A stretch of DNA of 64,000 bases from a virus (IMGVR_UViG_2901984674_000003), one strand, 5' to 3'; positions 16,614 to 42,349 are shown, counted from the first letter of the stretch. The notes: a model not told the origin generated them from the letters alone. Translations and numbers: made by a program.

Positions 16614-17720
16614 CTACATATTGCTGTTGAGGTATTTGTCATACTTCAAAAAGCCGTTAACGTTAGCATATTCAGCGTTGTCAACAAACACTACTGCAGC
16701 TTGTTTAGCAAAAGCTTTTTCAAACATATCGTGATTTAAGATGTTAGATGTGCCACCAGTAACTAACAAAGTGTCAATTTCAGCGATGTTCTTAAACGCT
16801 CCATAAACCTTATCAATTACGTTTGAAGTATAATGGTCAATTTCGCCTAAAACTAACTCGGTAATATCAAAGATATTATTAGCTGATTGCTTATATACAA
16901 ACTTAGCGTTGTCAAAACCACGTTCCAAGCCATCTCTTACCATAGCTTCAATTTTATGCACATCTGGGCTGATGCCTAATTCAAGCTCGATTAAAGATTT
17001 AACTGAGTTGTATAAAGTGTCTGCTCCAGTTGGTAGTTGTAAACGTGCTTGACGGTCTAAGTTAGCGTTGATTATTTGGTCTAATAACAATGTTCCACCG
17101 CCAACATCAATGATGCCAACACGATTTAAAGCTACGTTGTTACTATTAGGTTTTAATTCATCGTTTAACACAACGTCATAGAATGTTCCAATTGGCTGTG
17201 GCACTACCAAGACTTGAACTACACGTACAATTACTTCTTTACCATCAACTGTAACTAAGTGTCTACGTGGCTTAAAGTCTTGTCCGTCTTTTTCTAAAAA
17301 GATGCTCTTAATTTCATCAACTGTTTCTTTATTATAATCGCCTGTAGGAACACCTGCGATAACTGATACAGCTGTTAGTTCACTTTCAATATAATCCTTA
17401 GCTAGAAATGCTAAAGCAAACTCATTTAACAAACGGTAGATGTTGCGTTGGTATCTACCTTCAAAGCCAAGTGAGTCTTGGATCTTATCTTGAGAGTAAT
17501 TTAAGATACCAGCTCCCCAGTAATACTTTTGTGTATCACCATTTAAAGATAAGTCGATTACACCGTCTGGTTTAGATGTTGAAAAGACTGATGCTACATC
17601 TCTTTGATTAATTAAAGATGATGGAAATACATAACTGTCTTTACTATTTTTAAGTTTACTTTGTTTATTGCCAATATCTAATGCGAAAAAGTTTGTTGGT
17701 TGATTTTTCTTTTGAGTCAT
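16614..17720 (-). CDS. parM: Actin-like plasmid segregation ATPase (ParM/StbA family)
   Basis: FALDIGN (phosphate-1), GIIDVGGGT (phosphate-2) and LLVTGGTS (adenosine motif). A 460-nt AT-rich region upstream (17721-18180) is the likely parC/promoter region. Confidence 0.65.
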   Translation of the reverse strand: MTQKKNQPTNFFALDIGNKQSKLKNSKDSYVFPSSLINQRDVASVFSTSKPDGVIDLSLNGDTQKYYWGAGILNYSQDKIQDSLGFEGRYQRNIYRLLNEFALAFLAKDYIESELTAVSVIAGVPTGDYNKETVDEIKSIFLEKDGQDFKPRRHLVTVDGKEVIVRVVQVLVVPQPIGTFYDVVLNDELKPNSNNVALNRVGIIDVGGGTLLLDQIINANLDRQARLQLPTGADTLYNSVKSLIELELGISPDVHKIEAMVRDGLERGFDNAKFVYKQSANNIFDITELVLGEIDHYTSNVIDKVYGAFKNIAEIDTLLVTGGTSNILNHDMFEKAFAKQAAVVFVDNAEYANVNGFLKYDKYLNSNM

Positions 17721-18195
17721 ATTTATGATACCTTCCTTTATTAAAAATCAAACACACTCTTCTATTACTTTTAGTCTTAAGATGTGTTTCAAATAATTTC
17801 ATACTGTAATACTAACATTTTTATATACATTTGTAAATAATAAAAGTTCACAAAAAATATCATAGTTAGGATAAACCATAATTTTAATGCAATTAAATTA
17901 CAATAAAATCTCGACAATAGCAAGAATATAGGCTTTTGATTTTATTTTAGAGTTAATCAAAATAGCTACTTTTTATAAACTTTTATATAGGAAGAGAATT
18001 TAAATTGCATAAAAAGTGTACAAAATTATTTTAAAAAAGTATATTAAAAGTATTGCAATGAGTCACAAATAGGTGTATTATTATAACCGTAGATAAGGAA
18101 ATGTGTTATCATATAATTGCAATTTAGATTACTTTATTTCAAACCTACATTAAAACTATTTTTGAAAACTTAATATAATTTTGGAGGACTTTATT

Positions 18196-19254
18196 ATGAA
18201 CGAAGATATTTTCTCAAGCTTAATGGTTAACACTGAAGAAGGAACTACTACAGGAGTACCTCTAAGACCACAAGGAATCGAAGTCTTAAACCTTCGCCAC
18301 AACGGTCAAACTGGAGCTTTAACAATCCAGTTTCCAACTTTGCAAAGTGGTGATCGTGGAGAAGTACTTGACGCAAAGTCATACTCACTTATTCCATTGT
18401 TTATCACTAAGATTGCTACAAGCAGCAATGGTATTTCTTCTAATCCTTCATTATCTGGAGTTGGTTACTACGACTTATACAGATATGAAGATACAATGAA
18501 GGGACGTGTAAGCAACAGCTTAGGTATCTTTACAAGCAAGGGCTTAAAAGATCACTTCGCTGAAGAAGGGGCTAAAGTTAAGCATCGTATCTTTGGACTA
18601 TTGATTAAAAAAGACGGTGGTTCAATTAATAAAAACGAAAGCCTAAAAGATCTAAGCACTAGAAACGATGGTTTAGTAGTAGCTTACATCGACTTACTTC
18701 CAAGTAAGTACTTCGCTTTAGCTCAACAATTAAACTGCGATTATTCTAAGGTTGCTAACTTAATTGCTGGTAAAGTTCTTACCGTTGAAGGTGTTACAAA
18801 GACTAACCTAGATGTTTACTACAACAAGACATCTAAGGGTGGGGTGTTCTTACCTAAGTTTAGTTTAGACAACTTACAAGCAACATCTAAACAACGCTTA
18901 GCAAGTAAATCCAAAGACTTAATCACAAATGTTTTAAGTCCTTATATTAACGAAATTAAAGAAAATGACGTATTCTTAAACAGCCTTGTTTCTCACAATT
19001 TTATTCAACCTAAAACTGTTGAAAAATTAGGAAACATCGGTATCGTCAATGATAAAACCTTGAAATCATTCTTAGGCGAACCTGAAGATTGGAATAAGAT
19101 TGTATCTGTTGTAAACGATCAACCAACACTTCAATCTGGAATATCAACTACAGTTGATCCTACACCTAAAACTGAAAGTAATGTAGACGATTATTCTAAG
19201 TTCTTGGATAGCACTACTTCAGATGATTTCTCAAACGATGACTTACCATTCTAG
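18196..19254 (+). CDS. Hypothetical protein (353 aa)
   Basis: ATG at 18196 with a GGAGG RBS at 18183-18187 (the ORF track begins at TTG 18181). No recognisable motifs. Confidence 0.5.
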   Translation: MNEDIFSSLMVNTEEGTTTGVPLRPQGIEVLNLRHNGQTGALTIQFPTLQSGDRGEVLDAKSYSLIPLFITKIATSSNGISSNPSLSGVGYYDLYRYEDTMKGRVSNSLGIFTSKGLKDHFAEEGAKVKHRIFGLLIKKDGGSINKNESLKDLSTRNDGLVVAYIDLLPSKYFALAQQLNCDYSKVANLIAGKVLTVEGVTKTNLDVYYNKTSKGGVFLPKFSLDNLQATSKQRLASKSKDLITNVLSPYINEIKENDVFLNSLVSHNFIQPKTVEKLGNIGIVNDKTLKSFLGEPEDWNKIVSVVNDQPTLQSGISTTVDPTPKTESNVDDYSKFLDSTTSDDFSNDDLPF

Positions 19255-19263
19255 CCATCTTAT

Positions 19264-19332
19264 AGCAGGCATGGTTGCTTTGTTAGGGTTCGATTCTCTA
19301 ACTGCTAATAGAGCTAAGCTAAAGCTTGGCTC
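19264..19332 (+). ncRNA. Degenerate tRNA-like minihelix plus hairpin unit (family 1, copy c)
   Basis: GCAGGcatggttgct...GGGTTCGATTCtc...CTGCT followed by a small hairpin; same architecture as the copies below. Confidence 0.35.
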
Positions 19333-19397
19333 AAGGTTGCAAACATTGTTTGCATCGCTCCTTTCGTTTTATATGTTACTTTACTTACTAACTGGGT

Positions 19398-19467
19398 GTG
19401 GCACGCATGGTTGCTATAATAACGGTTCGATTCCGTTAGTGCCAATAGGGTTGCCATAGACCCTATT
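19398..19467 (+). ncRNA. tRNA-like minihelix (acceptor stem plus T-arm, no D or anticodon arms) followed by a short hairpin (family 1, copy a)
   Basis: TGGCAC gcatggttgctataata ACGG-TTCGATT-CCGT ta GTGCCAA, then ATAGGGttgccatagaCCCTAT. Confidence 0.55.
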
Positions 19468-19495
19468 CTCCTTTATTTTATTGAATTAATTAAAT

Positions 19496-19572
19496 TGGTT
19501 GGCAGAATGGTTGCATCAAGGTTCAAGTCCTTGGCTGCCAATAGGGTTTGCCATAAACCCTTATAGATTGCG
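19496..19572 (+). ncRNA. tRNA-like minihelix plus hairpin (family 1, copy b)
   Basis: TGGCAG aatggttgcat CAAGG-TTCAAGT-CCTTGG CTGCCA, then AGGGTTTgccataAAACCCT. Confidence 0.5.
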
Positions 19573-19769
19573 AATATGATGTTAATGGAGGCGAAATACT
19601 TTTAATAAAAACATAGAACTATATAGAATAAAATAGAAATATAAGCTGTAATTAAATTATAAAAAGAATAAATGTAGGTAATTTAAGCATTGTACATGTG
19701 TTTTCTTATTGCTTATATGATTTACGTAAATATAAAAGTAAATAAAAAATGACAAATCTTTGAAAGGCG

Positions 19770-20933
19770 GTGAAAATGATGATTCGAGTTCAGAAGGTAA
19801 GACTTTATCCAAATCAAACGATGAAAAAGGTGCTTGATGATCTATGTGATTATCGTAGATACTGTTGGAATCAAGGCTTAGCTTTATGGAATGATATGTA
19901 TGATAGTTCTTTGATTTTAGATGATAAAAAGTTAAAACCTAGTGAACACAAGGTTCGTAATGAGTTAGTATCTAATAAAGAAGACTGGCAATATCAATTA
20001 TCAGCTCGTTGTTTGCAATTAGCGATTTCCGATTTAGGTAAAGCTTGGAGTAAGTTTTTTAATAAATCACAAGTTGACTGGGGTAAGCCAAAATTCAAAT
20101 CTAAAAAAGCTCCTAGACAAGGGTTTAAAACTGATAGAGCTAAGATTATCAATGGTAAGCTAAGGCTTGACAAACCACACGGAATCAAAACTTGGTATGA
20201 TATTAGTTTTAAAGGTGCTAAGAGTTTAGATGGTGATTTAAAAGTTATCTCAGTTTACCGTGAAAATGGCAAGTACTGGGCTAGTTTACCTTTTGAAGTT
20301 GAAATAGCCAAGAAAACTAAAACTGGTAAGAAAACAGCAGTTGATATTAATGTCGGTCATTTTAACTATACCGAAGGTAAAGTTAATACACTACCTAATC
20401 ATTTAAGAAAACTCTATAAACGTATCAAACATTACCAACGTCAGTTAGCTAAAAAACGTGTCGTTAATGGAAGAAAAGCTACTCAATCGCATAATTATGT
20501 TAAAACGAGAGCCAAGTTACAACGTGATTATCGTAAAGTAACTAATATCCAACATGATATTGTGCATAAATTTACAACTAAATTAGCAAGTGATTACGAT
20601 AAGATAGCCATTGAAAATTTAGCAGTGAAGAAAATGCAGATGACGCACGTTGCATCTAAAGGCTTACAAAGATCATTATTTGGCTATTTTAGACAAATAT
20701 TAGCTTATAAAGCCGATTGGTATGGTAAGAAAATAGTCTTAGCAAGTCAATTTTATCCAAGCACACAAAGATGTTCCAAATGTGGTTATATTAAGACTGG
20801 CGAAGATAAAATTGGTCTTGATGGAAACCAAAAACATAAGACTAAACATAATGAATATATTTGTTATGAATGTGGTTCGGTTATGGATAGAGATGAAAAT
20901 GCAGTAAAAAATCTTCTGGCTTTAATAGCTTAG
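19770..20933 (+). CDS. tnpB: TnpB (IS605 OrfB family), copy 2
   Basis: 387-aa ORF with RuvC-I VDINVGH, RuvC-II IAIENL, a CSKCG...CYECG zinc finger and RuvC-III DRDENAVKNL. A hairpin-rich 3' flank at 20934-21060 is the likely right end or omega-RNA. Confidence 0.85.
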   Translation: MKMMIRVQKVRLYPNQTMKKVLDDLCDYRRYCWNQGLALWNDMYDSSLILDDKKLKPSEHKVRNELVSNKEDWQYQLSARCLQLAISDLGKAWSKFFNKSQVDWGKPKFKSKKAPRQGFKTDRAKIINGKLRLDKPHGIKTWYDISFKGAKSLDGDLKVISVYRENGKYWASLPFEVEIAKKTKTGKKTAVDINVGHFNYTEGKVNTLPNHLRKLYKRIKHYQRQLAKKRVVNGRKATQSHNYVKTRAKLQRDYRKVTNIQHDIVHKFTTKLASDYDKIAIENLAVKKMQMTHVASKGLQRSLFGYFRQILAYKADWYGKKIVLASQFYPSTQRCSKCGYIKTGEDKIGLDGNQKHKTKHNEYICYECGSVMDRDENAVKNLLALIA

Positions 20934-21445
20934 AAATATTATGGGGTGGGCTTACACCCTCAAGCTATCAGAGTTAGTCAATGTCATTACCCTCTAGTTA
21001 GGATATGGGAATACTAATGTTGACGGTAGTAAATAAAATTTAGGAAGGGAAAAATGTATTCTTTCTAATAATATAGAAATAATAGATATTTTTCTATATT
21101 ATTCTAATTTTATATAGCAGTAAGAGATGCGAATATTAATAATTTTCTAGTTTTTTTGAATAAATTATATCAAATGATACTACTTAAAAATACACTTCAC
21201 TCAACCTAATGGAGTTAACCAGTCAACAAGCTTTTAGAATTAATTCTAAAAGCTCTTGTGGACAACTTTACAACTCATTTGGCAGTCGTGCTTTGTTTCA
21301 AAAATCATTTGTAAGCTTCTTAAATTAGAAATTTAAGTTTAGCTTAGCTGGAACTAATCCGATTCCATCTGTACCATCAGTAAAAGCATTCGGTACTACT
21401 TTTTTAATATTTGTAAGATTCTTTATATTTCATTCGACTTACAAG

Positions 21446-21493
21446 TTGGCACGCATGGTTGCTGTAATAACGGTTCAATTCCGTTAGTGCTAA
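21446..21493 (+). ncRNA. tRNA-like minihelix (family 1, copy d), fused directly to scaffold S1
   Basis: TTGGCAC gcatggttgctgtaata ACGG-TTCAATT-CCGT ta GTGCTAA, followed by 'ttg' and then GAGGACGCTTG... Confidence 0.55.
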
Positions 21494-21496
21494 TTG

Positions 21497-21636
21497 GAGG
21501 ACGCTTGTTCTTGACAGCTCGGTAAATATTTCTAGCCTCTACGGTGTAACGTTGGTTAATCTAACGGTAAAACATCGCAAGCATGGAAAGTTCCCAAGAA
21601 GCTTGTGTCACTATTAAATACAGTTAGAAAACAACG
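21497..21636 (+). ncRNA. Conserved ~140-nt RNA scaffold S1 (tracrRNA/omega-RNA-like), start GAGGACGCTTGTTCTTGACAGCTCGG and internal GTTCCCAAGAAGCTT box
   Basis: One of six paralogous copies (21497, 23281, 33711, 34380, 36074, 37098). Each lies between a tRNA-like element and a repeat array. Confidence 0.6.
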
Positions 21637-21861
21637 GTTATGAACCTAGGTTAAATGACATAGGTGTAAGACCAGCAGTGTAAAAGCTTAAAAGCTGTTG
21701 TTGTTTTGAACTTAGGTTGAATGATGTAGGTTGAAGACTATATAAAATCTAGCATAGAAACTCTTGCATTTTGAACCTAGTTAAAATGACGTAAGTATAA
21801 GACAGAATACTGTATAGAGAGTTATGTTCTGAACTTAGCTAAAACAAACATAAGATAAGAC
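21637..21861 (+). CRISPR. CRISPR-like array A1: 4 repeats (36, 36, 35 and 33 nt, increasingly degenerate distally) with 30, 30 and 25-nt spacers
   Basis: The repeats are GTTATGAACCTAGGTTAAATGACATAGGTGTAAGAC, GTTTTGAACTTAGGTTGAATGATGTAGGTTGAAGAC, TTTTGAACCTAGTTAAAATGACGTAAGTATAAGAC and CTGAACTTAGCTAAAACAAACATAAGATAAGAC. The spacers are unique. Confidence 0.7.
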
Positions 21862-21982
21862 ATATCACAGGTTTATCTCACAAGCATTTTGGAATAAAAG
21901 CTAGTTCGATTCTAGCTATGCTTATTACCATTACTAAGCTTCGTAATGGTAACACACTTGCACTAAAACTATTACTTATAGG

Positions 21983-22046
21983 TTGGTAGAGTGGTTGTAT
22001 CGAGGTTCGATTCCTTGGCTACCAATAGGGTTGTCATAGACCCTAA
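21983..22046 (+). ncRNA. tRNA-like minihelix plus hairpin (family 1, copy e)
   Basis: TTGGTAG agtggttgtat CGAGG-TTCGATT-CCTTGG CTACCAA, then TAGGGttgtcatagaCCCTA. Confidence 0.5.
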
Positions 22047-22074
22047 AACTATTTCCTCTTATTGTAGGCTGCAA

Positions 22075-22335
22075 TGCCTTATTATATAAACTCCGTCAAC
22101 AGTAACCACCTACTAAAGTAGGTAACTTGTAGTAATACAAGTTTTGTTGTCTAGACTAAGTTCTTAGAGAACTACGTTATTTCAGTGATCATACCTAGAA
22201 ATGGTACCCTAGTTTCTAGCTCTATGAAGGCTCTGTAAACAAGCATAAGGTTAATGTGCTAGTCAACCTTGTAATAAGCTGAAATAACATTGTCGAAGGG
22301 TAACCACATGTATTTATTAACTCTGATAAATACGT
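22075..22335 (+). ncRNA. Orphan IscB omega-RNA-like scaffold (copy B) with no adjacent iscB ORF
   Basis: About 70% identical over about 240 nt to the region immediately upstream of iscB at 42370-42633. Shared blocks include CGTCAACAG(T)AACCACC(T)ACTAAAGTAGGT..CTTGTAG.AATACAAGTT and CGAAGGGTA(A)CCAC. The 5' flank (guide position) differs. Confidence 0.6.
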
Positions 22336-22378
22336 GATAAGGTCATTAATACCTTATATACTCCTTAAAATATTTGGT

Positions 22379-22443
22379 TGGCACGCATGGTTGCTATAAT
22401 AGTGGTTCGATCCCACTTGTGCTAATAGGGTGTAATAGCCCTA
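22379..22443 (+). ncRNA. tRNA-like minihelix plus hairpin (family 1, copy f)
   Basis: TTGGCAC gcatggttgctataat AGTGG-TTCGATC-CCACT t GTGCTAA, then TAGGGtgtaataGCCCTA. Confidence 0.5.
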
Positions 22444-22483
22444 ATGGTTGTATATTACTCCTTTTTAAAAAGTTACTTATAGG

Positions 22484-22549
22484 CTGGCACACATGGTTGT
22501 CTTGCAACAGTTCGATTCTGTTGGTGCCAATTGTAGCATTAAGCTACAA
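22484..22549 (+). ncRNA. tRNA-like minihelix (family 1, copy g)
   Basis: CTGGCAC acatggttgtcttgc AACAG-TTCGATT-CTGTT g GTGCCAA. Confidence 0.45.
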
Positions 22550-22627
22550 ACTCAAAACTTTTTCTCTTTAGAGTAATAAAAAAATTACTCTAACTAACAT
22601 AACTCCTTGATTTAATATATGATTTGG

Positions 22628-22696
22628 TTGGCACGTACGGTTACTTTATGGTAGTTCGACTCTACCAGTGCTAATTGCCTTTGGTAAAACGAAGGC
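22628..22696 (+). ncRNA. tRNA-like minihelix plus hairpin (family 1, copy h)
   Basis: TTGGCAC gtacggttactttatg GTAG-TTCGACT-CTAC ca GTGCTAA, then GCCTTTggtaaaacGAAGGC. Confidence 0.5.
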
Positions 22697-22761
22697 TAAA
22701 ATAACCCTTCTTATGGGGCAACAAAAATATCTTTCCTTTATAAGGTTTTTCTCTCAAATAG

Positions 22762-22831
22762 GTTGGCACGTACGGTTGCTTCTATAGTGGTTCGACTCCG
22801 CTAGTGCCAATAGGTTAGGGTTAATCCTAAC
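22762..22831 (+). ncRNA. tRNA-like minihelix plus hairpin (family 1, copy i)
   Basis: TTGGCAC gtacggttgcttctat AGTGG-TTCGACT-CCGCT a GTGCCAA, then GGTTAGGgttaatCCTAACC. Confidence 0.5.
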
Positions 22832-22993
22832 CGCCTACCTTATGTTATTTTTGGTGCTGGACTTTGCCTCCTGTACAAGGCTATGAAAAAAGTCAAAACG
22901 AACTGTTAAACAAACTAAGGCTGTACACCTGACAAGAGTGGGTGTTTGCAAGACAGTTCCTTGTATTTCGTTAGTTGGCCTTTGGAAATACAG

Positions 22994-23059
22994 TTGGTAA
23001 CACGGTTGTGACGTCAAGGTTCGACTCCTTGTTTACCAATAGGGCTAAGATAAGCCCTA
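22994..23059 (+). ncRNA. tRNA-like minihelix plus hairpin (family 1, copy j)
   Basis: TTGGTAA cacggttgtgacgt CAAGG-TTCGACT-CCTTG t TTACCAA, then TAGGGCTaagataAGCCCTA. Confidence 0.5.
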
Positions 23060-23084
23060 AATAAATCATAACATTAATTCAAGG

Positions 23085-23156
23085 TTGGCACGCATGGTTG
23101 CTATAATAACGGTTCGATTCCGTTAGTGCCAATAGCCTTTGCCAACGCAAGGGCTA
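23085..23156 (+). ncRNA. tRNA-like minihelix plus hairpin (family 1, copy k)
   Basis: TTGGCAC gcatggttgctataata ACGG-TTCGATT-CCGT ta GTGCCAA, then TAGCCTTTGccaacGCAAGGGCTA. Confidence 0.5.
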
Positions 23157-23215
23157 ACCAACTAATCGGAATGTATATGTACAACACTTTTTCCTCCCTT
23201 AATAAAAAGTGTGTG

Positions 23216-23277
23216 TAGCGATGTAGCTTAACGGTAGAGCAAGGCATGGGATACAGGTTCGACTCCTGTCATCGCTA
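23216..23277 (+). ncRNA. tRNA-like element (family 2, copy l): acceptor stem, D-arm and T-arm present, but the anticodon arm is collapsed to 13 nt. Fused to scaffold S2.
   Basis: TAGCGAT g TAGCTTAACGGTAGAGC aaggcatgggata CAGG-TTCGACT-CCTG tc ATCGCTA, followed by 'ttg' and then AAGGACGCTTG. Confidence 0.55.
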
Positions 23278-23280
23278 TTG

Positions 23281-23441
23281 AAGGACGCTTGTTCTTGACA
23301 GCTTGGTAAACATCTCTAACCTCTGCATAATCGCAACTTGCATTAGTTAGTTAGCGATTATGTAAGTCTAAAGAGTTCCCAAGAAGCTTATGTCAAAGTT
23401 AAATATAGGTTTTGAGCCTAGTTGAAAGCATAAGCTAAGAC
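23281..23441 (+). ncRNA. Scaffold S2 plus a single degenerate repeat (GGTTTTGAGCCTAGTTGAAAGCATAAGCTAAGAC). The guide position runs into the RBS and start of ORF 23462.
   Basis: Paralogous to S1, S3, S5 and S6. The lone repeat ends at 23441 and is followed by TAAATGATTATATCAAGGAGGTGGTT, which is the 5'UTR and GTG start of the next gene. Confidence 0.5.
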
Positions 23442-23461
23442 TAAATGATTATATCAAGGAG

Positions 23462-24520: not shown

Positions 24521-25588
24521 ATGACTAAAACTAACATTGAAGGAACATTTACAAAAGTATCAGATACATTAATTGAAGATGAAAAATACAAGGACTTAAG
24601 CGGTCTATCAATCTTGTTATATTCACTTTATGCAAGACGTTTAACTTGCTCTATTAATAGCGCTAAAAATGGAAATAAAGATTTTGTTGATGAAAAAGGT
24701 AATCCATACATTATCTTCACTAATGAAGAAGCAGCTGAAAAAGTACGTACAACTAGCAGAACTGTATCTAAGTTACGTAAAGAGTTAGTTAACCATGGCT
24801 TAATCAGTGTAAAAAGACTTGGTTTAAAGCATTACAAAATCTATGTGCATGAACCACAAGCAAGCGTTCAAAAGAAGACTCAAAGTACTGATAAGAGTAG
24901 TAGTAACAACGATATTAACAACGTGAATGAAGACCTGGTTGAAATTATCGACCAGTACGTGAGTGAAGATAATTCATTTACAGGCATGAAAAATAATCCT
25001 ATAAGTGAGAAAGACTCTAAGAGAGATATATATAATAATACAAATGAAACATATGAATCAAATCCTAACTTACAAAAAATTAGCGTTCAACCTTCTCCTT
25101 CTTCTATCGACTCAAAGGTAGATTATAACGTTAATAAAACAGCTATGTTAGCTTTAAGAAGTAGAGTAGCTAACGTTTTAACTCCTGCTGTATGGGGTAG
25201 AGTTGAAGTTTTAGCTCAAGGTGATTATAAACAAGCTAAGTTTATTGTTAACACTATCTTTAAAGCTAAAAGCCAAGTAACTAATAAATTATTGTCTAGT
25301 TCAAACTGGTTATACAATCCTGCAAGTCAAGAAGCTACAAGATTTGAAACTAACAACTTGTTAATCAAGGGTTTAGAATCTGCATTAATTAGAATGACTG
25401 AAATTATTTACAAAGGTCAAGAAAAGGTTAGAAACACTGAAAGCTTTATGTATTCTTACATTCGTAACAACATCGCTAATAGCATTAAGACATACTTGTC
25501 TGACAACTTTGAATTAGCTCAAGATGAACTGATTGAAGTCAATAGCTTAACTAGTTTTGGAACTAAACCACAATACGCTGTGGCTTAG
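24521..25588 (+). CDS. repA: Plasmid replication initiator, RepA_N family
   Basis: The N-terminus LSILLYSLYARRL...DEKGNPYIIFTNEEAAEKV...SRTVSKLRKELVNHGLISVKR fits the RepA_N winged-helix consensus of Firmicutes plasmids. Confidence 0.55.
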   Translation: MTKTNIEGTFTKVSDTLIEDEKYKDLSGLSILLYSLYARRLTCSINSAKNGNKDFVDEKGNPYIIFTNEEAAEKVRTTSRTVSKLRKELVNHGLISVKRLGLKHYKIYVHEPQASVQKKTQSTDKSSSNNDINNVNEDLVEIIDQYVSEDNSFTGMKNNPISEKDSKRDIYNNTNETYESNPNLQKISVQPSPSSIDSKVDYNVNKTAMLALRSRVANVLTPAVWGRVEVLAQGDYKQAKFIVNTIFKAKSQVTNKLLSSSNWLYNPASQEATRFETNNLLIKGLESALIRMTEIIYKGQEKVRNTESFMYSYIRNNIANSIKTYLSDNFELAQDELIEVNSLTSFGTKPQYAVA

Positions 25589-25811: not shown

Positions 25812-26363
25812 ATGGAAATTAAGACTCAAACTACTATGGCTGTAGCTAACTTTGCCATTGAATTAGCAATCAAACAAAAGCAAGATCTAAGCTATCTCAA
25901 GCTTTGTGAAGTCTTATTTTTCTTGCAAGGCTATTACCTGGACAAATACCAACAACCACTAATAGATTGTGTGTTCAAAAGTAATGTTCACGGTGTAATT
26001 AACAAAGAAATTATTAGTGAGTTTAAATTCTACGGTCCAGGTAATATCAAAAGCCCTAAAATCAACCTTGATTTTTCGAGTTTTTCTTTATTGCACGGTG
26101 GCGAAATTAAGAGTTATCAAGAAGAAGTAGATTTACCTAAAATTCAACTAGAAGAGTTACAGAAAGTTACTCAGACCTTAATTTCTAAGCCAAGTTGGCA
26201 GTTAGGCAAAGTTATCATCAGCCATGGAACTCACAAAGATCCTCTTGTTAACGAACTTAGCGAAATATTGGGACATAGAACATACGAATATGCAGAATAC
26301 ACTAATTTTGAAATCGAAGAATGCTTTGTTGATAACAAAAAGTGGTTGCTCTCAGTCATTTAA
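25812..26363 (+). CDS. Hypothetical protein
   Basis: 183-aa ORF. Confidence 0.45.
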   Translation: MEIKTQTTMAVANFAIELAIKQKQDLSYLKLCEVLFFLQGYYLDKYQQPLIDCVFKSNVHGVINKEIISEFKFYGPGNIKSPKINLDFSSFSLLHGGEIKSYQEEVDLPKIQLEELQKVTQTLISKPSWQLGKVIISHGTHKDPLVNELSEILGHRTYEYAEYTNFEIEECFVDNKKWLLSVI

Positions 26364-26384: not shown

Positions 26385-26753
26385 ATGGTAAAAATTGCAA
26401 CATATAAAGAAGTAATTAATTATTTGAACTATTTAGACATGGGTGCAAAAAAAATTAATGAGATTGATGATTTCGAAAATGGGACTAAACCAATAGGAGA
26501 ATTATTACTGAATTATAGTCAATCTATAGATTTTGGAAATGGTAATACTTATATAAGTGTTATAGAAGAAGGACTATATAACATGACATATGGGAAAAGA
26601 GCTGAAAATGTAGAAGAGGGGTTTTCTAAGTTCAATGTAGGGGTTGAACGTTATAGAAAATACCTTGCTAAATCATGGTGGCAGTTTGGTGGAGGAATAG
26701 GGAAACAAAAACCAATATCAGAAGTACCCATGGTAACTAAGATTATTTTTTAA
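26385..26753 (+). CDS. Hypothetical protein
   Basis: 122-aa ORF. Confidence 0.4.
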   Translation: MVKIATYKEVINYLNYLDMGAKKINEIDDFENGTKPIGELLLNYSQSIDFGNGNTYISVIEEGLYNMTYGKRAENVEEGFSKFNVGVERYRKYLAKSWWQFGGGIGKQKPISEVPMVTKIIF

Positions 26754-26774: not shown

Positions 26775-27257
26775 ATGCACAATTTAAGTTTGAAATCGAT
26801 GCCTAATGCTGCTCTGGATTTTGAATCTGGTAATGGTGATATTAAGCAAAGAAAACTAGCTATTATTCAGGCAAAAAAACGTAGTTTGTACTTAAAAAAG
26901 ATATTAATAGGTTTTTTTGAAACAATTCATATAAAAGTTAAATCAATCAAAGTTAACGGAAGTTTATGCCAATATACATTTGTAATTCCACATTTAGGGG
27001 GATTAATTGATTTTAAAAAGTTAAATATAGTTATTTCAGACAATTTTCCTAAAAGTACAGTTCGTATATGGATGAAAAACGGAAAATTAATTATAGAATT
27101 AAGCAATATGATTAATATTCCTGTATTATTTAAAGATTTAGTTTTAATGAATGAAGAGTATGACGTAGTGAATACGGTGATAGGGCAAGATGGTTCGGAA
27201 ATAGTCGTAAGATTATCCAATTTGTTAGACCTGTTACTACAAATACACAAAATTTAA
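26775..27257 (+). CDS. Hypothetical protein whose 3' ~70 nt overlaps the iscB remnant in another frame (deletion/fusion junction)
   Basis: 160-aa ORF. Its last ~25 codons are encoded by DNA homologous to iscB codons 42-66, read out of frame. Confidence 0.4.
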   Translation: MHNLSLKSMPNAALDFESGNGDIKQRKLAIIQAKKRSLYLKKILIGFFETIHIKVKSIKVNGSLCQYTFVIPHLGGLIDFKKLNIVISDNFPKSTVRIWMKNGKLIIELSNMINIPVLFKDLVLMNEEYDVVNTVIGQDGSEIVVRLSNLLDLLLQIHKI

Positions 27258-28432
27258 CTTTAGGAGTAGATGCTGGTTTTCACTTAGGATTATCTGTTGT
27301 TGGAAACCAACGTGAATATTATGCGTCAGAAAGCTTAAGAAAGTCAGAAAAAGATCGAATTACTAGTCGAAGAGAATTAAGACGTACTCGAAGAGGACAT
27401 TTAAGATACCGTCAAGCTAGATTTGATAATCGTAGACGTAAAGACGGCTGGTTAGCTCCTAGTATTCAACACAGATTAGATTTTACAATTAAAGAAATCA
27501 AACGTTTATATACGTTTTTACCCATTACTAATTTAGTCGTTGAAGTTACACCATTTGATAATCAAAAACTAGCTAATCCAAATATTAAAGCCTGGCAGTA
27601 TCAAAAAGGTAAGATGTATGGTTTTAAGACGATTAAGGATTATCTACTAGCTAGAGATAACTATCGTGATGCTTTAGATGGTAAACAATACCCAGCTAGT
27701 CAGTTAAGAGTCCATCACTTAGTTCAAAGAAAAGATGGTGGTTCTAATCAGCCAGATAACTTAGTTTTATTGTCAGATATTAACCACAATCAAGCTAATC
27801 ACAATAATGGTGTCTTAGCTAAATTAAGACAAAATCGGCAAAAGACGATTGATTATCGTGGAGCTTATTTTATGAGCATTTTAGCAACAAGATTAAGCAA
27901 TTATTTTGATGAATATACGACAACTCAAGGTTATCTAACCGCTAACCTAAGACAAAAGTATAAGATTGAAAAATCTCACTTAAATGACGCTTTTGTGATT
28001 GCTGGTGGAACTGATACAACCCTTAGAACAAACAATGTTTATTCGAGACAAAAGTTAAGGAATAATAATCGTATATTACAGTTGTTTTATGACGCTAAGT
28101 ATATTGATTGTCGCGATGGTAAACAAAAAGCTGGTAAAGAGTTAAGTTCAGGGAGAACTAGACGATCCCAAGAGCTTAATTATGACAATTTAAGACAATT
28201 TAGAAAAGAAAAAGTTAAAAAGGGTCGTGTTTCGATTAGAAGAGGTCATTATCAATTAAGACCACATGATGTTGTGTTAAATACCAGAACTAACAGGATT
28301 GAAAGAGTCAAAGGAGTTAATAGTAGAGGAAAGGGCATTGTTTTCCAAAGCGGTAAATATGGCACAGTTAAAAATGTAATTAGCTTATATCATGTAAATG
28401 GAATGTTGGAAAAGAAAATGGAAAATATTTAG
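27190..28432 (+). pseudogene. iscB: 5'-truncated IscB paralogue. It lacks the N-terminal PLMP domain, has no start codon and has no upstream omega-RNA.
   Basis: About 85% nucleotide identity to iscB 42740-43992 from the ARWFGNSRK codons onward. It retains RuvC-I (GVDAGFHLGLSVVG), the HNH-like segment (VHHLVQRKDGGSNQPDNLVLLSDINHN) and RuvC-III (HLNDAFVIAGG). The ORF track only calls the part from the internal Met (27614). Confidence 0.7.
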
Positions 28433-33066: not shown

Positions 33067-33494
33067 ATGCTCTTTGTGTAAACTGGTATATAGTTCCCAT
33101 AAAAAAAGCTAATCATGATTTTAAATAATCATAACTAGCTTATACACCACAATAGTCTTAAACATTCACGCTTGAGGGCAAGCAGGTCGCAACTGTTTGT
33201 CCTCTTTTCATATACAATAATACATGGCATGGATCCAAAAGTAAAGAAAAACAAAAGAAGATATACAAGCTATTATAGACTTTGCTAACAAACAACTAAA
33301 AAAACGATACTAGAATGTTATTAACACATTGCAGTAGTTTATGTTAAAATAGAACTAGCAAAAAACAGTTAAGGCTCCTTAATGTTTGTTTTGCTGTTGA
33401 AAAAGAAAGTCACATCTAGGGTTACCTAAGCTTGTGGCTTTTTTTATTTTTTAACTTTTTTGAATTTTATTTTAAAAAAGTATACAAAAACATT

Positions 33495-33523
33495 TGACTT
33501 AGAGTGTGAGATAGTGTATCATA
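33495..33523 (+). promoter_or_regulatory. Sigma-70-type promoter driving the tRNA-like/scaffold/array locus
   Basis: TTGACT, a 17-nt spacer, then TATCAT, about 135 nt upstream of tRNA-like element m. Confidence 0.45.
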
Positions 33524-33657
33524 ATAAACGTAAGGCAAAGGGTTAAGCCTACAGGGACATCAGTAAACTACATGTAAGCCTCTATCGTTCCTGTAAGCAT
33601 TAGCACAAGCCTTATAATCTTAACTTTATCTTTATTCATTTATGTACATTTTATGTG

Positions 33658-33707
33658 TAGCGATGCCAAACGGTAGATCAATGCAGGTGCAATTCCTGCC
33701 ATCGCTA
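33658..33707 (+). ncRNA. tRNA-like minihelix (family 2, copy m; acceptor plus T-arm), fused to scaffold S3
   Basis: TAGCGATG ccaaacggtagatcaat GCAGG-TGCAATT-CCTGC CATCGCTA, followed by 'ttg' and then GAGGACGCTTG. Confidence 0.5.
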
Positions 33708-33710
33708 TTG

Positions 33711-33852
33711 GAGGACGCTTGTTCTCGACAGCTTGGTTAATATCTTTGACCTCTGTATAATCGCAAATTGCATTAGTTTGTTTACGATTATGCAAGTCTG
33801 AAGAGTTCCCAAGAAGCTTATGCCACAATTAAATACAGGTTAGAAAATAACG
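33711..33852 (+). ncRNA. Scaffold S3 (tracrRNA/omega-RNA-like)
   Basis: GAGGACGCTTGTTCTCGACAGCTTGG...GAGTTCCCAAGAAGCTTATG...AAATACAGGTTAGAAAATAACG. Confidence 0.6.
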
Positions 33853-34284
33853 GTTCTGAACCTAGGCTAAATGACATAGGTTGAAGACTTACGGTAGAAT
33901 GTATCTTCAATTTTTCTAGTTCTGAACCTAGGCTAAATGACATAGGTTGAAGACGCTACTACTCATTGTGAACTTAAACTGGTTGTTCTGAACCTAGGCT
34001 AAATGACATAGGTTGAAGACAGTACTAGCGGCTCATCTGCATATATACTAGTTCTGAACCTAGTTGAATTGACATAGGTGTAAGACCATTGAAGTTCGTA
34101 TGGTGGATATCATCTAGTTCTGAACCTAAGTTAAATAACATAGGTGTAAGACATAGGTTTAATGATTGCTCCAATGGTTGAAGTTCTGAGCCTAAGTTAA
34201 ATGGCATAGGTGTAAGACTCACGTTTATGTGAGTGATTATAATTCACAGTTCTGAGCCTAAGTTAAATGACATAGGTGCAAGAC
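33853..34284 (+). CRISPR. CRISPR-like array A3: 7 direct repeats of 36 nt separated by six unique 30-nt spacers, at an exact 66-nt period
   Basis: Repeats start at 33853, 33919, 33985, 34051, 34117, 34183 and 34249. Consensus is GTTCTGAACCTAGGCTAAATGACATAGGTTGAAGAC, with 1-5 nt drift in distal units. The repeat contains the palindrome AACCTAGGTT and a potential CCTAGG/CATAGG hairpin. Spacers are non-repetitive and differ in GC content from one another. Confidence 0.85.
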
Positions 34285-34314
34285 TGAAATCATGGGCTTA
34301 ATTAAAGTCAAAAC

Positions 34315-34376
34315 AACGATGTAGCTCAATGGTAGAGCAAAGCGAGGCGACGTAGGTTCGATTCCTACCATCGTTA
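34315..34376 (+). ncRNA. tRNA-like element (family 2, copy n; D-arm and T-arm present, anticodon arm reduced to 13 nt), fused to scaffold S4
   Basis: AACGATG TAGCTCAATGGTAGAGC aaagcgaggcgac GTAGG-TTCGATT-CCTAC CATCGTT a, followed by 'ttg' and then GAGGGTGCTTG. Confidence 0.55.
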
Positions 34377-34379
34377 TTG

Positions 34380-34505
34380 GAGGGTGCTTGCTCTTCACAG
34401 TTTGGTTAACATCTTCGCAAACAAAGTTGCTGATTGCATTTCTTTGTTGAAGAGTTCCCAAAAAGCGCTGATAGCACAAATAAAGACGTCCATTGTGGAA
34501 GACTA
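34380..34505 (+). ncRNA. Divergent scaffold S4 plus one degenerate repeat (...CCATTGTGGAAGAC), immediately upstream of tnpB-3
   Basis: GAGGGTGCTTGCTCTTCACAGTTTGG...GAGTTCCCAAAAAGCGCTG is paralogous to the other scaffolds at about 75% identity. Confidence 0.45.
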
Positions 34506-34544
34506 ATGTAGTGTAGTCAGCTGAAAGACTATACATAAATTACG

Positions 34545-36026
34545 TTGGTGTTTAAAAAGGAGTTGGAAAAAATGGAAGAAAAAGTTTTAGAAAGTCGTAG
34601 AATTAGAATTTATCCTACTAAGGATCAACAAGCATATTTAACGTTTAATATGTTTGCTAATATCAAGATGTGGAACGCATTACTAGCTGAAGTTTATAAG
34701 CCAGTTAGTGAGTTAGATGAAGTTCAAGCTTTACCTAGAAACAAACAAAGTAAAGAAGTTTATAAACGCATTGAAAGAATGTCATGGGAAGAGCAACGTG
34801 ATTTGTTCAAAGGTTTACGTGGACTTTCGACTAAGGCTATTTACGATGCTGATGAAACTGTGTTTGAAAGTGGTTGGACTTTAAAAGACGCTGATACTAG
34901 CATGTATAGTTACACTTTACGTACTTTAAAAACAGCGATGAGCAACCATTTGAAAAACCCTAGACACTTTGGTATTCCTAGGTTTAAGACAACAATGGAC
35001 GTTGAAAATCAAGGTAGTTATACCTCAGGCGCTCATGTTTGTGAAATCAGTGAAGACGGCAAGTACCTTAGAGTAGGTAAATTGAAAAGATTTAAGTTAG
35101 GCTTAATTGAGATGGCTAATCACTATCCTAGTGACGGACGTTTGTATAAAGTAACAATTAAGCATGAATCCAGCGATACTTGGTATGTATCATTTGTGTT
35201 TGAACAAGCTGAGCATACAGTAAAACGTCCTAGAACTGGTTTAGCAGCTGGTATTGACTTAAACGTAACAGGTAACAGTCATATTGTTTTACAAGATGGT
35301 ACTAGATACCAATTGCCATATGACAAAATCAGAAAATTAGAACAAAAGATTGAAAAAGAAAACGTAAAACGTAGTCGCAAGTATGAACAATGGAAAAAAG
35401 AGGTTGCAATCATTGAAGAAGACAATAAAAAATCCTTAATTCCAAAGCATGTTCCTACTTTAGCCGAACGTAGCAATTACCAAAAGAACAAAAAGAAGAT
35501 TGCTAAGTTACATTTACGCATTAAAAACTTGAAAAAAGACTATATTAAAAAAACATGTTCAAAGCTTGCTAATGAATATGATGTAATCGTTATGGAAGAC
35601 CTAGCTGTTTCAGATATGGAAAAGAATAAATACCGTGCTAGAGCAATCACTAGATCAAACTTCCGTGAAATTAGAGATACGCTTACTTATATGATGGACT
35701 GGGCTGATAAAAAGATTGTGTTTATTGATCGTTGGTCACCAACTTCAAAGCGTTGCCATACTTGTGGTTACATTAAGCACAACCTTAAATTAAGCGACCG
35801 TAAGTGGACTTGCCCTATCTGTAATTCTCACCATGATCAAGACATAAACGCAGCTAAAAACATCTTAGATGAAGGCTTAGACTTGCTAGACAAAATGAAT
35901 GATTCTTGCAAGAAATGTGGGCATGAGCGTACGGTTATTACAACAGACGAAAAGTGGACATGTACAAAGTGTGGAGCTAAAAATAAAACCACACCTAAAG
36001 AAGAAAATAGTAGCGATGTAGCCTAA
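34545..36026 (+). CDS. TnpB/Cas12-like RNA-guided nuclease (493 aa) flanked on both sides by scaffold plus CRISPR-like array modules. Candidate type V-U-like effector.
   Basis: The TnpB-type N-terminus (RIRIYPTKDQQAYL...), RuvC-I (AAGIDLNVTG), RuvC-II (VIVMEDLAV), zinc finger CHTCG...CPICN and RuvC-III (HDQDINAAKNI), plus an extra C-terminal CKKCG...CTKCG finger. Its stop codon lies inside tRNA-like element o. Confidence 0.85.
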   Translation: MVFKKELEKMEEKVLESRRIRIYPTKDQQAYLTFNMFANIKMWNALLAEVYKPVSELDEVQALPRNKQSKEVYKRIERMSWEEQRDLFKGLRGLSTKAIYDADETVFESGWTLKDADTSMYSYTLRTLKTAMSNHLKNPRHFGIPRFKTTMDVENQGSYTSGAHVCEISEDGKYLRVGKLKRFKLGLIEMANHYPSDGRLYKVTIKHESSDTWYVSFVFEQAEHTVKRPRTGLAAGIDLNVTGNSHIVLQDGTRYQLPYDKIRKLEQKIEKENVKRSRKYEQWKKEVAIIEEDNKKSLIPKHVPTLAERSNYQKNKKKIAKLHLRIKNLKKDYIKKTCSKLANEYDVIVMEDLAVSDMEKNKYRARAITRSNFREIRDTLTYMMDWADKKIVFIDRWSPTSKRCHTCGYIKHNLKLSDRKWTCPICNSHHDQDINAAKNILDEGLDLLDKMNDSCKKCGHERTVITTDEKWTCTKCGAKNKTTPKEENSSDVA

Positions 36027-36070
36027 CGGTAAGGCAAGGTAACAGATGCAGGTTCGACTCCTACCATCGT
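36009..36070 (+). ncRNA. tRNA-like element (family 2, copy o) overlapping the last 6 codons and stop of tnpB-3; fused to scaffold S5
   Basis: TAGCGATG TAGCCTAACGGTAAGGC aaggtaacagat GCAGG-TTCGACT-CCTAC CATCGTTA, followed by 'tag' and then GAGGACGCTTG. Confidence 0.55.
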
Positions 36071-36073
36071 TAT

Positions 36074-36450: not shown

Positions 36451-36479
36451 ATATAGAGGAGCCGATCAAAAAAATATTC

Positions 36480-37094: not shown

Positions 37095-37097
37095 TTG

Positions 37098-42107: not shown

Positions 42108-42116
42108 AAGAAAGAA

Positions 42117-42332: not shown

Positions 42333-42349
42333 GGTAACGTACAAAGATT

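Follow-up and report, generated by a model that had tools for sequence, protein, structure and literature searches.

In the long non-coding transcripts MALAT1 and NEAT1, a reduced tRNA-like fold (mascRNA and MEN-beta; Rfam mascRNA-menRNA) is cut by RNase P and RNase Z, and this cutting sets the ends of the neighbouring RNAs and releases a small CCA-tailed RNA. tRNA folds also lie between cargo RNAs in mitochondrial tRNA punctuation and in engineered polycistronic tRNA–guide RNA arrays, where RNase P and RNase Z release the cargo. Acceptor/T-arm minihelices are RNase P substrates, and RNAs of Bacillus are stabilised by 5′-terminal stem-loops. In the CCA-less tRNA genes of Firmicutes, U74, A75 and then a stem-loop come after the discriminator, and RNase Z cleaves 3′ of the discriminator (PMC1874595); U is the first base of the fragment downstream of the cut in a lactic acid bacterium (PMC8549757). 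ROOL has been reported near tRNA islands (PMC12286853), an arrangement that relatives of the locus described here also show.

RESULTS

Mini tRNA-like units on a linear megaplasmid

The window analysed here is a 64,000-nt stretch of DNA (IMGVR_UViG_2901984674_000003), and the carrier of the elements is a linear megaplasmid of Ligilactobacillus salivarius. The + strand of the window holds, at 19263–23156, 12 mini tRNA-like units (U1–U12), all co-directional. Each unit is 42–47 bases long and lacks, of the parts of a tRNA, only the anticodon arm. It comprises an acceptor stem (6 bp), a mini D-arm (3 bp, YGGU loop), a linker of only 5–7 nt, a T-arm (6 bp, UUCGAYU loop), an unpaired A and an invariant U. 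The main helix is 6 + 6 = 12 bp plus the unpaired A, CCA is not encoded, and a hairpin starts 0–3 nt past the A. The initial annotation had counted eleven units; all eleven lie on the + strand where it placed them, and its limits, 19264 and 23156, match the start of U1 and the end of the hairpin after U11, but the count is 12. Its anatomy also changes. What it took for a 15–17-nt bulge contains a covarying 3-bp stem with the YGGU loop, the mini D-arm, which RNAalifold predicted independently; the T stem has 6 bp, not 5; and the first ‘pair’ of its 7-bp acceptor fails to form in 12 of 41 distinct copies, with the 3′ A conserved.

U1 (19263–19308, acceptor UAGCAG/CUGCUA plus A) begins 9 nt past the stop codon of an ORF at 18181–19254 and is followed by a hairpin at 19311–19332 (RNAfold). 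U2 (19399–19445; hairpin 19446–19465) and U3 (19500–19541; hairpin 19543–19561), the latter of a short-linker type with a UUCAAGU loop, precede a TnpB element (19576–21444). U4 (21447–21493) lies 2 nt before a tracrRNA-like scaffold (21496–21626, GGAGGACGCUUGUUCUUGACAGCU...), after which four degenerate 36-nt repeats extend to about 21865. U12 (21882–21924) is divergent, with the acceptor AAGCAU/AUGCUU; it was recognised by its orthologues and by 39.3 bits with model R2, and a 10-bp hairpin follows at 21925–21952. U5 (21984–22025; hairpin 22026–22045) and U6 (22379–22425; hairpin 22427–22442) flank a HEARO at 22094–22355, and the single-sequence fold of U6 alone gives acceptor, mini D-arm, T-arm and hairpin. 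The remaining units are U7 (22485–22530; hairpin 22531–22549), U8 (22629–22674; hairpin 22677–22696), U9 (22764–22810; hairpin 22813–22832), U10 (22995–23039; hairpin 23040–23059) and U11 (23086–23132; hairpin 23133–23156); U1–U11 all match the covariance model. Seven or eight units stand in a row with only a hairpin and 40–95 nt of AT-rich spacer between them, and their acceptor and T-stem sequences fall into a limited repertoire of distinct types. Promoter-like hexamers occur inside only 3–4 of the 12 units.

The pattern GGTTRYN{4,10}GTTCRAYYC, counted against shuffled sequence, has 10 matches in the window, all on the + strand and all within 19273–23120, where shuffling predicts 0.01; chance is therefore excluded as the origin of the units. 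Small ORFs on the minus strand, after AAAGGAG motifs, were considered as an alternative identity and rejected because stops interrupt the frames and start codons are missing in most units.

The fold is under selection as RNA

A covariance model seeded with eight of the units recovered the three that had been withheld, at E 4e-7 to 5e-9, and found 46 more copies in related DNA. Over 58 distinct copies, pairing holds in 98.0% of cells (79.5% after shuffling), the covariation score is 0.61 (0.23 after shuffling, at most 0.16 with slid partners) and 12 of the 15 base pairs show two-sided changes, so that the earlier claim of a structure kept by compensatory change holds. The three covarying helices are accompanied by conserved single-stranded tRNA signatures: YGGU in 53 of the 58, the T-loop UUC in every copy, the discriminator A in 56, the U right after it in all 58, and a U at −1, before the first paired base, in 42. 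The acceptor sequence is itself conserved at some positions (a G-C pair in 57/58, an A-U pair in 55/58), which hints at sequence-specific recognition or at homogenisation among copies.

Wobble use on the + strand is strongly biased (60 G-U cells versus 3 A-C cells), indicating that + is the folding strand, and all 78 of 78 copies point the same way as the flanking genes and RNAs. Both results speak against the ‘structured DNA’ that the initial annotation had entertained. A role at the DNA level, whether in partition, as an origin, in single-strand initiation, as attachment sites of an integrase or as IS200/605-type targets, would suit a cluster that lies between parM (16614–17720, minus strand) and a RepA operon (repA, 24521–25588), has the SSB-like acidic tail DDLPF at the end of its upstream ORF, houses a TnpB element and a HEARO (with a further TnpB gene in the cluster of L. 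salivarius ZSA5) and has promoter-like hexamers in a few units. We nevertheless consider it very improbable: the pairing is intramolecular and strand-specific in its use of G-U, tRNA tertiary-contact motifs are meaningless in duplex DNA, the hexamers are confined to those 3–4 units, and the same elements stand beside CRISPR-like arrays far from replication genes. Nor do the insertions mark the units as landing pads for IS200/605 elements, since TnpB and HEARO sit in spacers, ∼14 and ∼48 nt past a hairpin, at differing distances and sequences and with no common register.

Hairpins and guide scaffolds follow the units in a fixed register

A hairpin with ΔG ≤ −5 kcal/mol starts 0–3 nt past the unpaired A in 46 of 47 distinct flanks. 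Its mean ΔG is −9.5, whereas shuffles average −3.6 and control windows placed 45 nt beyond it average −2.5, and in orthologues the 10-bp hairpin of U12 shows double changes (A-U to G-C and U-A to C-G). A GC hairpin after each unit, as first described, is thus the rule; the exception is U4, which has the ∼130-nt tracrRNA-like scaffold in place of a simple hairpin. This scaffold opens with a 6-bp hairpin in the register of the hairpins of the other units.

Larger armless tRNA-like elements, which we call D-type, occupy the same kind of position. The first (23217–23277, +) has a 7-bp acceptor, a full D-arm and a T-arm, with ∼6 nt in place of the anticodon arm (Rfam tRNA, 50 bits, 17 model positions replaced by 6 nt), and stands 2 nt before a tracr-like scaffold with one repeat (23280–23446, +) that folds as a natural single-guide-like RNA. 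A degenerate D-type element (33659–33707, +) lies ∼125 nt past a promoter-like site (33494–33525, TTGACT-17-TATCAT) and 2 nt before a tracr-like scaffold with a 7-repeat array. Another (34315–34376, +) is separated by 30 nt, one spacer length, from the last repeat before it and is followed after 2 nt by a scaffold, and a fourth (36012–36072, +) overlaps the end of a gene for a 493-aa TnpB/Cas12f-like protein, with a full cloverleaf at the syntenic place in relatives. Every scaffold in the window but one has a tRNA-like discriminator 2–3 nt before GGAGGACGC; the exception, at 37097, directly follows ROOL with no tRNA-like element in front. Altogether we observed ∼25 junctions, many of them orthologous and hence fewer independent cases, at which exactly 2–3 nt separate a mini unit or a D-type element from the tracrRNA-like scaffold downstream, which in turn feeds CRISPR-like arrays. 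Both types are found at this position and are in that sense interchangeable.

The units are neither tRNAs nor tmRNA domains

ARAGORN finds no tRNA in the window, and with the Rfam tRNA model (RF00005) the 12 mini units yield no match even at E ≤ 10, in agreement with the initial annotation. The units nevertheless have tRNA hallmarks (a 12-bp acceptor/T-arm stack, a 7-nt T-loop UUCRAYY and GG in the D-loop mimic), and they are not fragments of the 3′ half of one tRNA, as each contains both acceptor strands, the D-loop mimic and the T-arm. No Rfam family covers a unit at gathering score, including two families that L. salivarius plasmids are known to carry, salivarius-1, which matches elsewhere on a related plasmid, off the units, and Transposase-1; the only Rfam echo is a weak match (8.2 bits) to the tmRNA T-arm. 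The tRNA-like domain of tmRNA was rejected as an identity: ARAGORN reports no tmRNA in the window, the halves of a unit are joined by 5–7 nt with neither a tag reading frame nor pseudoknots, and a pair of the G3-U70 type is present in only 9 of 41 copies (third pair in 7 + 6 numbering). What the units do have is the mark of processing elements of the mascRNA type, a sense-strand tRNA-like fold that abuts other functional RNAs.

Relatives and the origin of the units

Mini units were seen in one lineage of L. salivarius linear plasmids only, and looser anticodon-armless relatives in more distant ROOL/tRNA islands. Relatives whose nuclease is 50–70% identical carry real tRNAs, odd cloverleafs and armless tRNA-like elements with a hairpin beside ROOL, scaffold and repeats, and a cloverleaf in relatives (L161/L159) is syntenic with an armless element in the window. 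The elements thus form a reduction series from full cloverleafs. Such a series might also be a decaying phage or plasmid tRNA island, shaped by tandem duplication and gene conversion and without present function; the presence of real tRNAs and odd cloverleafs in the corresponding positions of relatives, the exchange of T-arms between orthologous units (a mosaic of the kind that recombining repeats typically produce) and the narrow distribution would fit. However, decay breaks stems and gene conversion alone makes no compensated pairs, whereas here pairing stands at 98% with double changes at 12 of 15 pairs, the T-loop, GG, discriminator A and next U are near-invariant in the 58 distinct copies, G-U is tolerated while A-C is avoided, and the hairpin keeps its register in 46 of 47 flanks. 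We regard a functionless relic as improbable.

The main rival to a role in processing is that the processed mini-tRNAs are themselves the product, serving either as decoys or sponges that titrate proteins directed at the acceptor end or elbow, or as acceptors of an amino acid used outside translation. The titrated proteins could be factors that bind or modify tRNA, or toxins or defence enzymes whose cleavage or modification falls on the acceptor stem or the 3′ CCA end. The tandem runs resemble tRNA gene arrays, and relatives differ by the gain and loss of whole modules. Every copy is under selection for its structure; conservation extends to the discriminator A and to several acceptor pairs, and the limited repertoire of acceptor and T-stem sequences looks as if there were several ‘isoacceptors’. 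Moreover, a large tRNA-repair-type protein (kinase-phosphatase-RNA ligase) is encoded both in the lineage and in its relatives, and an antitoxin with a Panacea domain lies nearby, which together make a tRNA-directed conflict plausible for these elements. Decoys for acceptor-end enzymes are possible, but those for anticodon nucleases, as once suggested, are barred, as there is no anticodon loop to cleave. A partner protein was not found, and no aminoacylation identity element is conserved, the third-pair G-U being confined to the 9 of 41 copies. Since such a product would also leave unexplained the 2–3-nt register to scaffolds and the substitution of D-type for mini elements, we think this reading rather unlikely.

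DISCUSSION

Of the four roles put forward in the initial annotation, RNA-processing punctuation is the one backed by context, as the units keep a fixed register to the features they adjoin: a stop codon, tracr-like scaffolds and the ends of arrays. Judging from sequence and its comparison, we give a probability of about 0.5 to the reading that the units derive from tRNAs and serve as RNase P/RNase Z cutting signals, punctuating polycistronic non-coding operons, with the hairpin capping the released downstream RNA. Ancestral tRNAs would have lost their anticodon arm and retained the features by which host tRNA end-processing recognises its substrates: the acceptor/T-arm stack, the canonical T-loop, the GG-containing D-loop mimic, which could form the tRNA elbow, usually a U at −1, and the discriminator A followed by U with no encoded CCA. 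The units would lie within long + strand transcription units made up mostly of non-coding RNAs. The predicted cuts are by RNase P where each unit begins and by RNase Z past the discriminator A, and the determinants of these sites (U at −1, A73, U74, CCA not encoded) are present in the sequence. Both cuts would split the precursor into separate small RNAs, including CRISPR guide scaffolds. Where a tracrRNA-like scaffold follows, the unit would fix its 5′ end, and the ∼125-nt leader after the promoter-like site at 33494–33525 would have to come off before the tRNA-like element and scaffold. Elsewhere the hairpin, 0–3 nt past the putative RNase Z site, would become the 5′-terminal structure of the downstream fragment and may block 5′-to-3′ exonucleolytic decay (RNase J1 in Firmicutes); it may also stop the tRNA-like fold from pairing with its flanks.

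Several observations do not sit easily with cutting signals. The run of seven or eight tandem units exceeds the need of pure punctuation, the conservation of acceptor sequence goes beyond pairing, and the scaffold at 37097 has no tRNA-like element. The mini D-arm loop has only 4 nt, which makes an elbow contact uncertain, and RNase Z might be impeded, not aided, by a hairpin so near its cleavage site.

On a broader and more tentative view, to which we give somewhat less than even odds, these plasmids and their phage-like relatives may have turned a tRNA island into a general RNA-maturation system. Armless elements would bring in RNase P and RNase Z of the host, so that tracrRNA-like scaffolds, crRNA arrays, omega-RNAs, ROOL and a set of hairpin-capped small RNAs with CUCCUUU (anti-Shine-Dalgarno-like) motifs are released with defined ends. 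If true, this would be a natural counterpart of engineered tRNA–guide RNA arrays and a route of guide RNA maturation independent of Cas and RNase III. Our literature searches found no natural bacterial tRNA–guide fusion, only engineered ones. The cargo of the engineered arrays is a CRISPR guide scaffold, as it would be for U4 and the D-type elements, but these arrays, like mitochondrial punctuation, use full decoding-competent tRNAs, whereas the units lack the anticodon arm.

The tRNA-like domain of tmRNA, which is processed by RNase P, shares with the units the acceptor stem, T-arm, D-loop analogue and absence of an anticodon arm; the G3-U70 alanine identity pair, the pseudoknots and the tag reading frame between the halves belong to tmRNA alone. 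YrlA, a bacterial Y RNA-like RNA, shows that a T-arm and D-arm mimic of tRNA in a bacterial or phage non-coding RNA can be recognised by tRNA enzymes, but in YrlA the mimic belongs as a single domain to a larger RNA, a ligand of the Ro60 orthologue Rsr (PMC4201824). Neither an Rsr gene nor a Y RNA stem was seen at our locus. The likely ancestors of the units are canonical CCA-less tRNA genes, those of Firmicutes and of phage tRNA islands beside ROOL or GOLLD, with which they share the T-loop, the discriminator followed by U-A and the stem-loop after the gene (PMC1874595); compared with canonical tRNAs, the units have no anticodon arm, a 3-bp D stem, a helix of 6 + 6 instead of 7 + 5 and no decoding. 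In mode of working, with cleavage of the units taken as predicted, the closest analogue is mascRNA/MEN-beta, which differs in being eukaryotic, unrelated in sequence and single-copy rather than arrayed, in keeping a short anticodon stem, and in its stabiliser, an upstream triple helix where the units have a downstream hairpin.

The tRNA-like units fold into three helices on the + strand

All eleven units described in the initial annotation were found, each on the + strand, and we observed a twelfth, more divergent one at 21882-21924 (+). These mini units (U1-U12, 19263-23156) are tRNA-like elements of 42-47 nt. The signature GGTTRY-(4-10 nt)-GTTCRAYYC gave 10 matches, all on the + strand (19273-23120), where 0.01 were expected. 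A covariance model, which had been proposed as a check, was built from a seed of eight units and recovered the three left-out units as well as 46 copies in relatives; on 18 unrelated viral loci and 7 loci of other genomes it returned nothing convincing. In all, 78 copies were collected, 58 of which are distinct; they come from the window, from three related plasmid or viral sequences and from four metagenome contigs.

Each unit consists of a 6-bp acceptor stem, a 3-bp stem with a YGGU loop and a 6-bp T stem with a 7-nt T loop (UUCGAYU). Pairing amounted to 98.0% in the 58 distinct copies compared to 79.5% in shuffles, and the compensatory changes claimed from the sequence alone were borne out, as both sides were altered in 12 of 15 pairs. 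The covariation score was 0.61 versus 0.23 after shuffling and ≤0.16 when the partners were slid. The same three helices were obtained independently with RNAalifold and from the single-sequence fold of U6. The outermost pair of the 7-bp acceptor stem in the initial annotation did not hold: it is unpaired in 12 of 41 copies, although its 3' A is kept. Because this pair is often open while the A after the unit helix is conserved (56 of 58 copies), we read the A as a putative discriminator base behind a stack of 6 + 6 = 12 bp, equal in length to the 7 + 5 stack of a tRNA. This A is followed by U in 58/58 copies, U also precedes the helix in 42/58, and an encoded CCA is absent. Only a minority of the copies carry the alanine identity element (G3-U70), which was therefore rejected as a family feature.

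On the + strand, the stems contain 60 G-U pairs versus 3 A-C mismatches. Thus, it is the + strand that folds, which fits an RNA transcribed in the same direction as every flanking gene. The covariation and the strand asymmetry agree poorly with the idea that the mini units are relics, which we consider improbable, and also with a role at the DNA level, which appears very improbable indeed. Promoter-like sequences inside the units (TTGGCA-18-TATTAT on the - strand and TGCTATAAT on the + strand) occur in 3-4 of the 12 units and were dismissed as a family feature.

A hairpin follows the discriminator position

A hairpin with ΔG ≤ -5 kcal/mol begins 0-3 nt past the discriminator in 46 of 47 distinct downstream flanks (mean ΔG -9.5, compared to -3.6 in shuffles and -2.5 in windows 45 nt further downstream). 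Its sequence differs widely from unit to unit, and orthologous hairpins differ by double changes (e.g. ACCAUUAC/GUAAUGGU versus GCCGCUAC/GUAGUGGC). Promoters or terminators belonging to each unit were rejected, as we saw only scattered weak consensus matches and a U-rich tail at one hairpin (U2); the hairpins are therefore not ordinary terminators.

The spacers between units are highly conserved among aligned relatives, and no significant structure was detected in the 181-nt U9-U10 spacer (z = -0.57). In the cluster (19255-19576 and 21444-23460), the + strand bears 12 anti-Shine-Dalgarno-like CU-rich motifs (counted as CTCCT, TTCCTC or CCTCC; typically CUCCUUU) and the - strand a single one. 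These motifs usually sit 17-41 nt upstream of the next unit, and the same motif precedes an anticodon-armless tRNA-like element in L161, a metagenome relative. The sequence AAAGGAG opposite the spacers had suggested small ORFs on the minus strand; these were discarded because of stops inside the frames and missing start codons, and the CU-rich motif is not the ribosome-binding site of conserved minus-strand ORFs.

tRNA-like elements precede CRISPR-like scaffolds in a fixed register

The window carries a plasmid-borne miniature type V-like CRISPR system (33494-37320, also 21496-21870 and 23280-23446) with a TnpB/Cas12f-like gene (34545-36026, 493 aa), 36-nt repeats (GTTCTGAACCTAGGTTAAATGACATAGGTGTAAGAC), 30-nt spacers and six copies of a ~130-nt tracr-like scaffold, whose 3' end is complementary to the repeat (anti-repeat). 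All scaffolds except one, located after the ROOL RNA, have a tRNA-like element in front. This element is either a mini unit (U4 in the window, with its scaffold at 21496-21626, and several in relatives) or a larger D-type element (such as 23217-23277), in which the acceptor, D-arm and T-arm are normal and ~6 nt replace the anticodon arm. The distance from the discriminator to the scaffold is 2 nt, rarely 3, and the scaffold opens with the motif GGAGGACGC; its own first hairpin (6 bp) lies at the same register as the hairpins of other units. We observed this register at ~25 junctions, many of which are orthologous, so that the independent cases are fewer. At the other boundaries, U1 starts 9 nt past the stop codon of the upstream ORF, and one D-type element lies exactly 30 nt (one spacer length) beyond the last repeat of an array, at four loci that are all orthologous and were counted as one case.

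A promoter-like sequence (TTGACT-17 nt-TATCAT, 33494-33525) and a ~125-nt leader are followed, on one strand throughout, by a tRNA-like element, scaffold, array, tRNA-like element, the nuclease gene, tRNA-like element, scaffold, array, ROOL, scaffold and array. ROOL (36483-37083) is embedded in the CRISPR-like operon; it starts ~32 nt past the last repeat of one array and ends 13 nt before the next scaffold. In the metagenome relatives L159 and L161, ROOL is preceded at a distance of 30 nt by a real tRNA-Arg(UCU) and followed by a scaffold. At 23280-23446, the fold of the scaffold with its single repeat is like that of a natural single guide; the ribosome-binding site and start of ORF 23462 make up its 'spacer'. 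This resembles a TnpB omega-RNA reading its flank, and the system therefore looks like a TnpB-to-Cas12 intermediate. Searches of phage and plasmid collections found no targets of the CRISPR-like spacers.

The unit family is narrow and evolves by recombination

The window region is 95% identical to the linear 166.6-kb plasmid of Ligilactobacillus salivarius ZSA5 (NZ_CP123973.1) and ~90% identical to two IMG/VR contigs (180 and 93 kb). Gene products of the window include ParM, RepA, DnaB-like helicases, an FtsK/SpoIIIE ATPase, sortase, adhesins, three TnpB-like proteins and one IscB. ARAGORN found no tRNA in the whole window, and an Rfam scan matched ROOL, HEARO (twice), Transposase-1 (once) and three short 'tRNA' stretches (61-62 nt). 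The SocA/Panacea-domain antitoxin gene directly downstream of repA (25812-26363) and the two small ORFs behind it (26385-26753 and 26775-27257) may form a toxin-antitoxin addiction module. The ZSA5 plasmid carries four copies of the Rfam salivarius-1 RNA (at 27582-28082 and 41721-41775), which is absent from the window and unrelated to the mini units. The plasmid lineage and phage-like relatives also encode an RNA ligase of 711-801 aa (41946-44351 in ZSA5; 17165-19474, 17343-19667 and 6505-8640 in L159, L161 and L165). In the three metagenome relatives the ligase is a fusion of a kinase (AAA_33), a metallophosphatase and a T4 Rnl1-like ligase, a combination typically seen in the repair of tRNAs attacked by anticodon nucleases.

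The complete ZSA5 plasmid has 13 mini units in one cluster at the same place as in the window, bounded by the RepA operon and by the orthologue of ORF 18181-19254. This ORF (357 aa), between the parM gene and the cluster in the window and conserved at that position in ZSA5, has no Pfam, PHROG or PDB match; its last residues (...DDFSNDDLPF) are similar to the acidic tip in which bacterial SSB proteins end. We scanned viral contigs with three DNA patterns, 185,579 species genomes with one and JGI metagenomes with one. True matches came from a single lineage only; the remaining ones were singletons, negative where scored with the covariance model, a scoring that left out the loosest-pattern stretches (80 of 116 listed). 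Near and distant searches of a phage collection gave no match to the mini units, and they belong to no Rfam family. The family is narrow and comprises a single lineage of L. salivarius linear plasmids along with looser relatives.

Relative to two related sequences (L001 and L004), the TnpB element (19576-21444) and an orphan HEARO (22094-22355) are insertions. Units had been suggested as landing pads for IS200/605 elements; this was not upheld, since both insertions lie in spacers at unrelated positions. The HEARO is an IscB omega-RNA without an IscB gene, flanked by the near-duplicate CCTTAT(TA)TATA(A)ACTCC, and the ZSA5 cluster contains one more TnpB gene. It seems that the non-coding cluster tolerates insertions or is a preferred site for them.

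T-arms are exchanged between orthologous units, and modules of unit, hairpin and spacer are gained or lost whole; thus, the array evolves by recombination among copies. When 22355-23460 was compared with four relatives (L001, L004, L005 and L153), acceptor stems and flanks were identical while T-stems were wholly different. The swapped T-stems are fully compensated (e.g. U8 UGGUAG/CUACCA versus CAGUGG/CCACUG) and stem from a limited common repertoire; this points to gene conversion among units.

Distant relatives of the nuclease (50-70% identity) lie in tRNA islands of 20-124-kb phage-like contigs. ROOL and real tRNAs (Arg-UCU, Ser-GCU) occur in these islands together with cloverleafs that have odd anticodons and with tRNA-likes that lack the anticodon arm and have a hairpin behind them; one of the latter precedes a scaffold, repeats and the nuclease gene. 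Right behind the nuclease gene, L161 and L159 have a full cloverleaf, whereas the element at this place in the window lacks the 13 nt of the anticodon arm. Judged from these sequences, the forms make up a reduction series from cloverleaf to D-type to mini unit.

The units are candidate signals for tRNA end-processing enzymes

Most likely, the units would act as cutting signals for host tRNA end-processing enzymes. Bacterial RNase P takes acceptor/T-arm minihelices and reads the T-loop/D-loop elbow, and a primary study of RNase Z reportedly found U to be preferred after the cleavage site. Cleavage at the units would set free the cargo between them and place the hairpin 1-3 nt from the new 5'-monophosphate end, so that the downstream fragment would start with U and the hairpin, or with UUGGAGGAC. 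In Bacillus 5' stabilisers, a stem-loop near the 5' end blocks RNase J1. Firmicute CCA-less precursors are cut by RNase Z immediately 3' of the discriminator, which in native CCA-less genes of B. subtilis is followed by U74 A75 and a stem-loop (PMC1874595), and in a lactic acid bacterium U was found at the start of the downstream fragment (PMC8549757). The units agree with these determinants. Units U6-U11 fit the cutting-signal reading poorly, as they form a tandem series that leaves little room in between; either the hairpin-capped spacers are themselves products, or it is the mini-tRNAs as such that matter.

It is also conceivable, if rather doubtful, that the mini units are stand-alone tRNA mimics or decoys. 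The tRNA-repair-type ligase encoded by the lineage and its relatives would suit such a role, but no partner is known and the fixed scaffold junction would be left unexplained. Returning to processing, we file the units as a putative tRNA-derived, anticodon-armless processing element: the unit structure is solid, the context striking and the lineage narrow, and the mechanism is a proposal.

Comparison with known systems

In the literature we found no account of the mini units or of natural tRNA-like/tracrRNA junctions; the tRNA-guide fusions described there are engineered. If RNase P and RNase Z process the units, they would be, according to this search, the first natural bacterial tRNA-like punctuation of non-coding operons, and a natural precedent of the tRNA-guide RNA arrays of genome editing. 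The long-noted, unexplained link between giant ROOL/GOLLD RNAs and tRNA islands would gain a concrete, testable role. As the family is narrow, its general importance hinges on the mechanism being confirmed. The units show how small a tRNA can become while under selection (42-47 nt, with a D stem of 3 bp and without the anticodon arm), and multiplexed RNA expression in lactic acid bacteria could make use of them as compact processing tags. In function they come closest to the mascRNA-type elements of MALAT1/NEAT1, to mitochondrial tRNA punctuation and to engineered tRNA-guide arrays, and in form to the tmRNA domain that resembles a tRNA; they belong to none of these.
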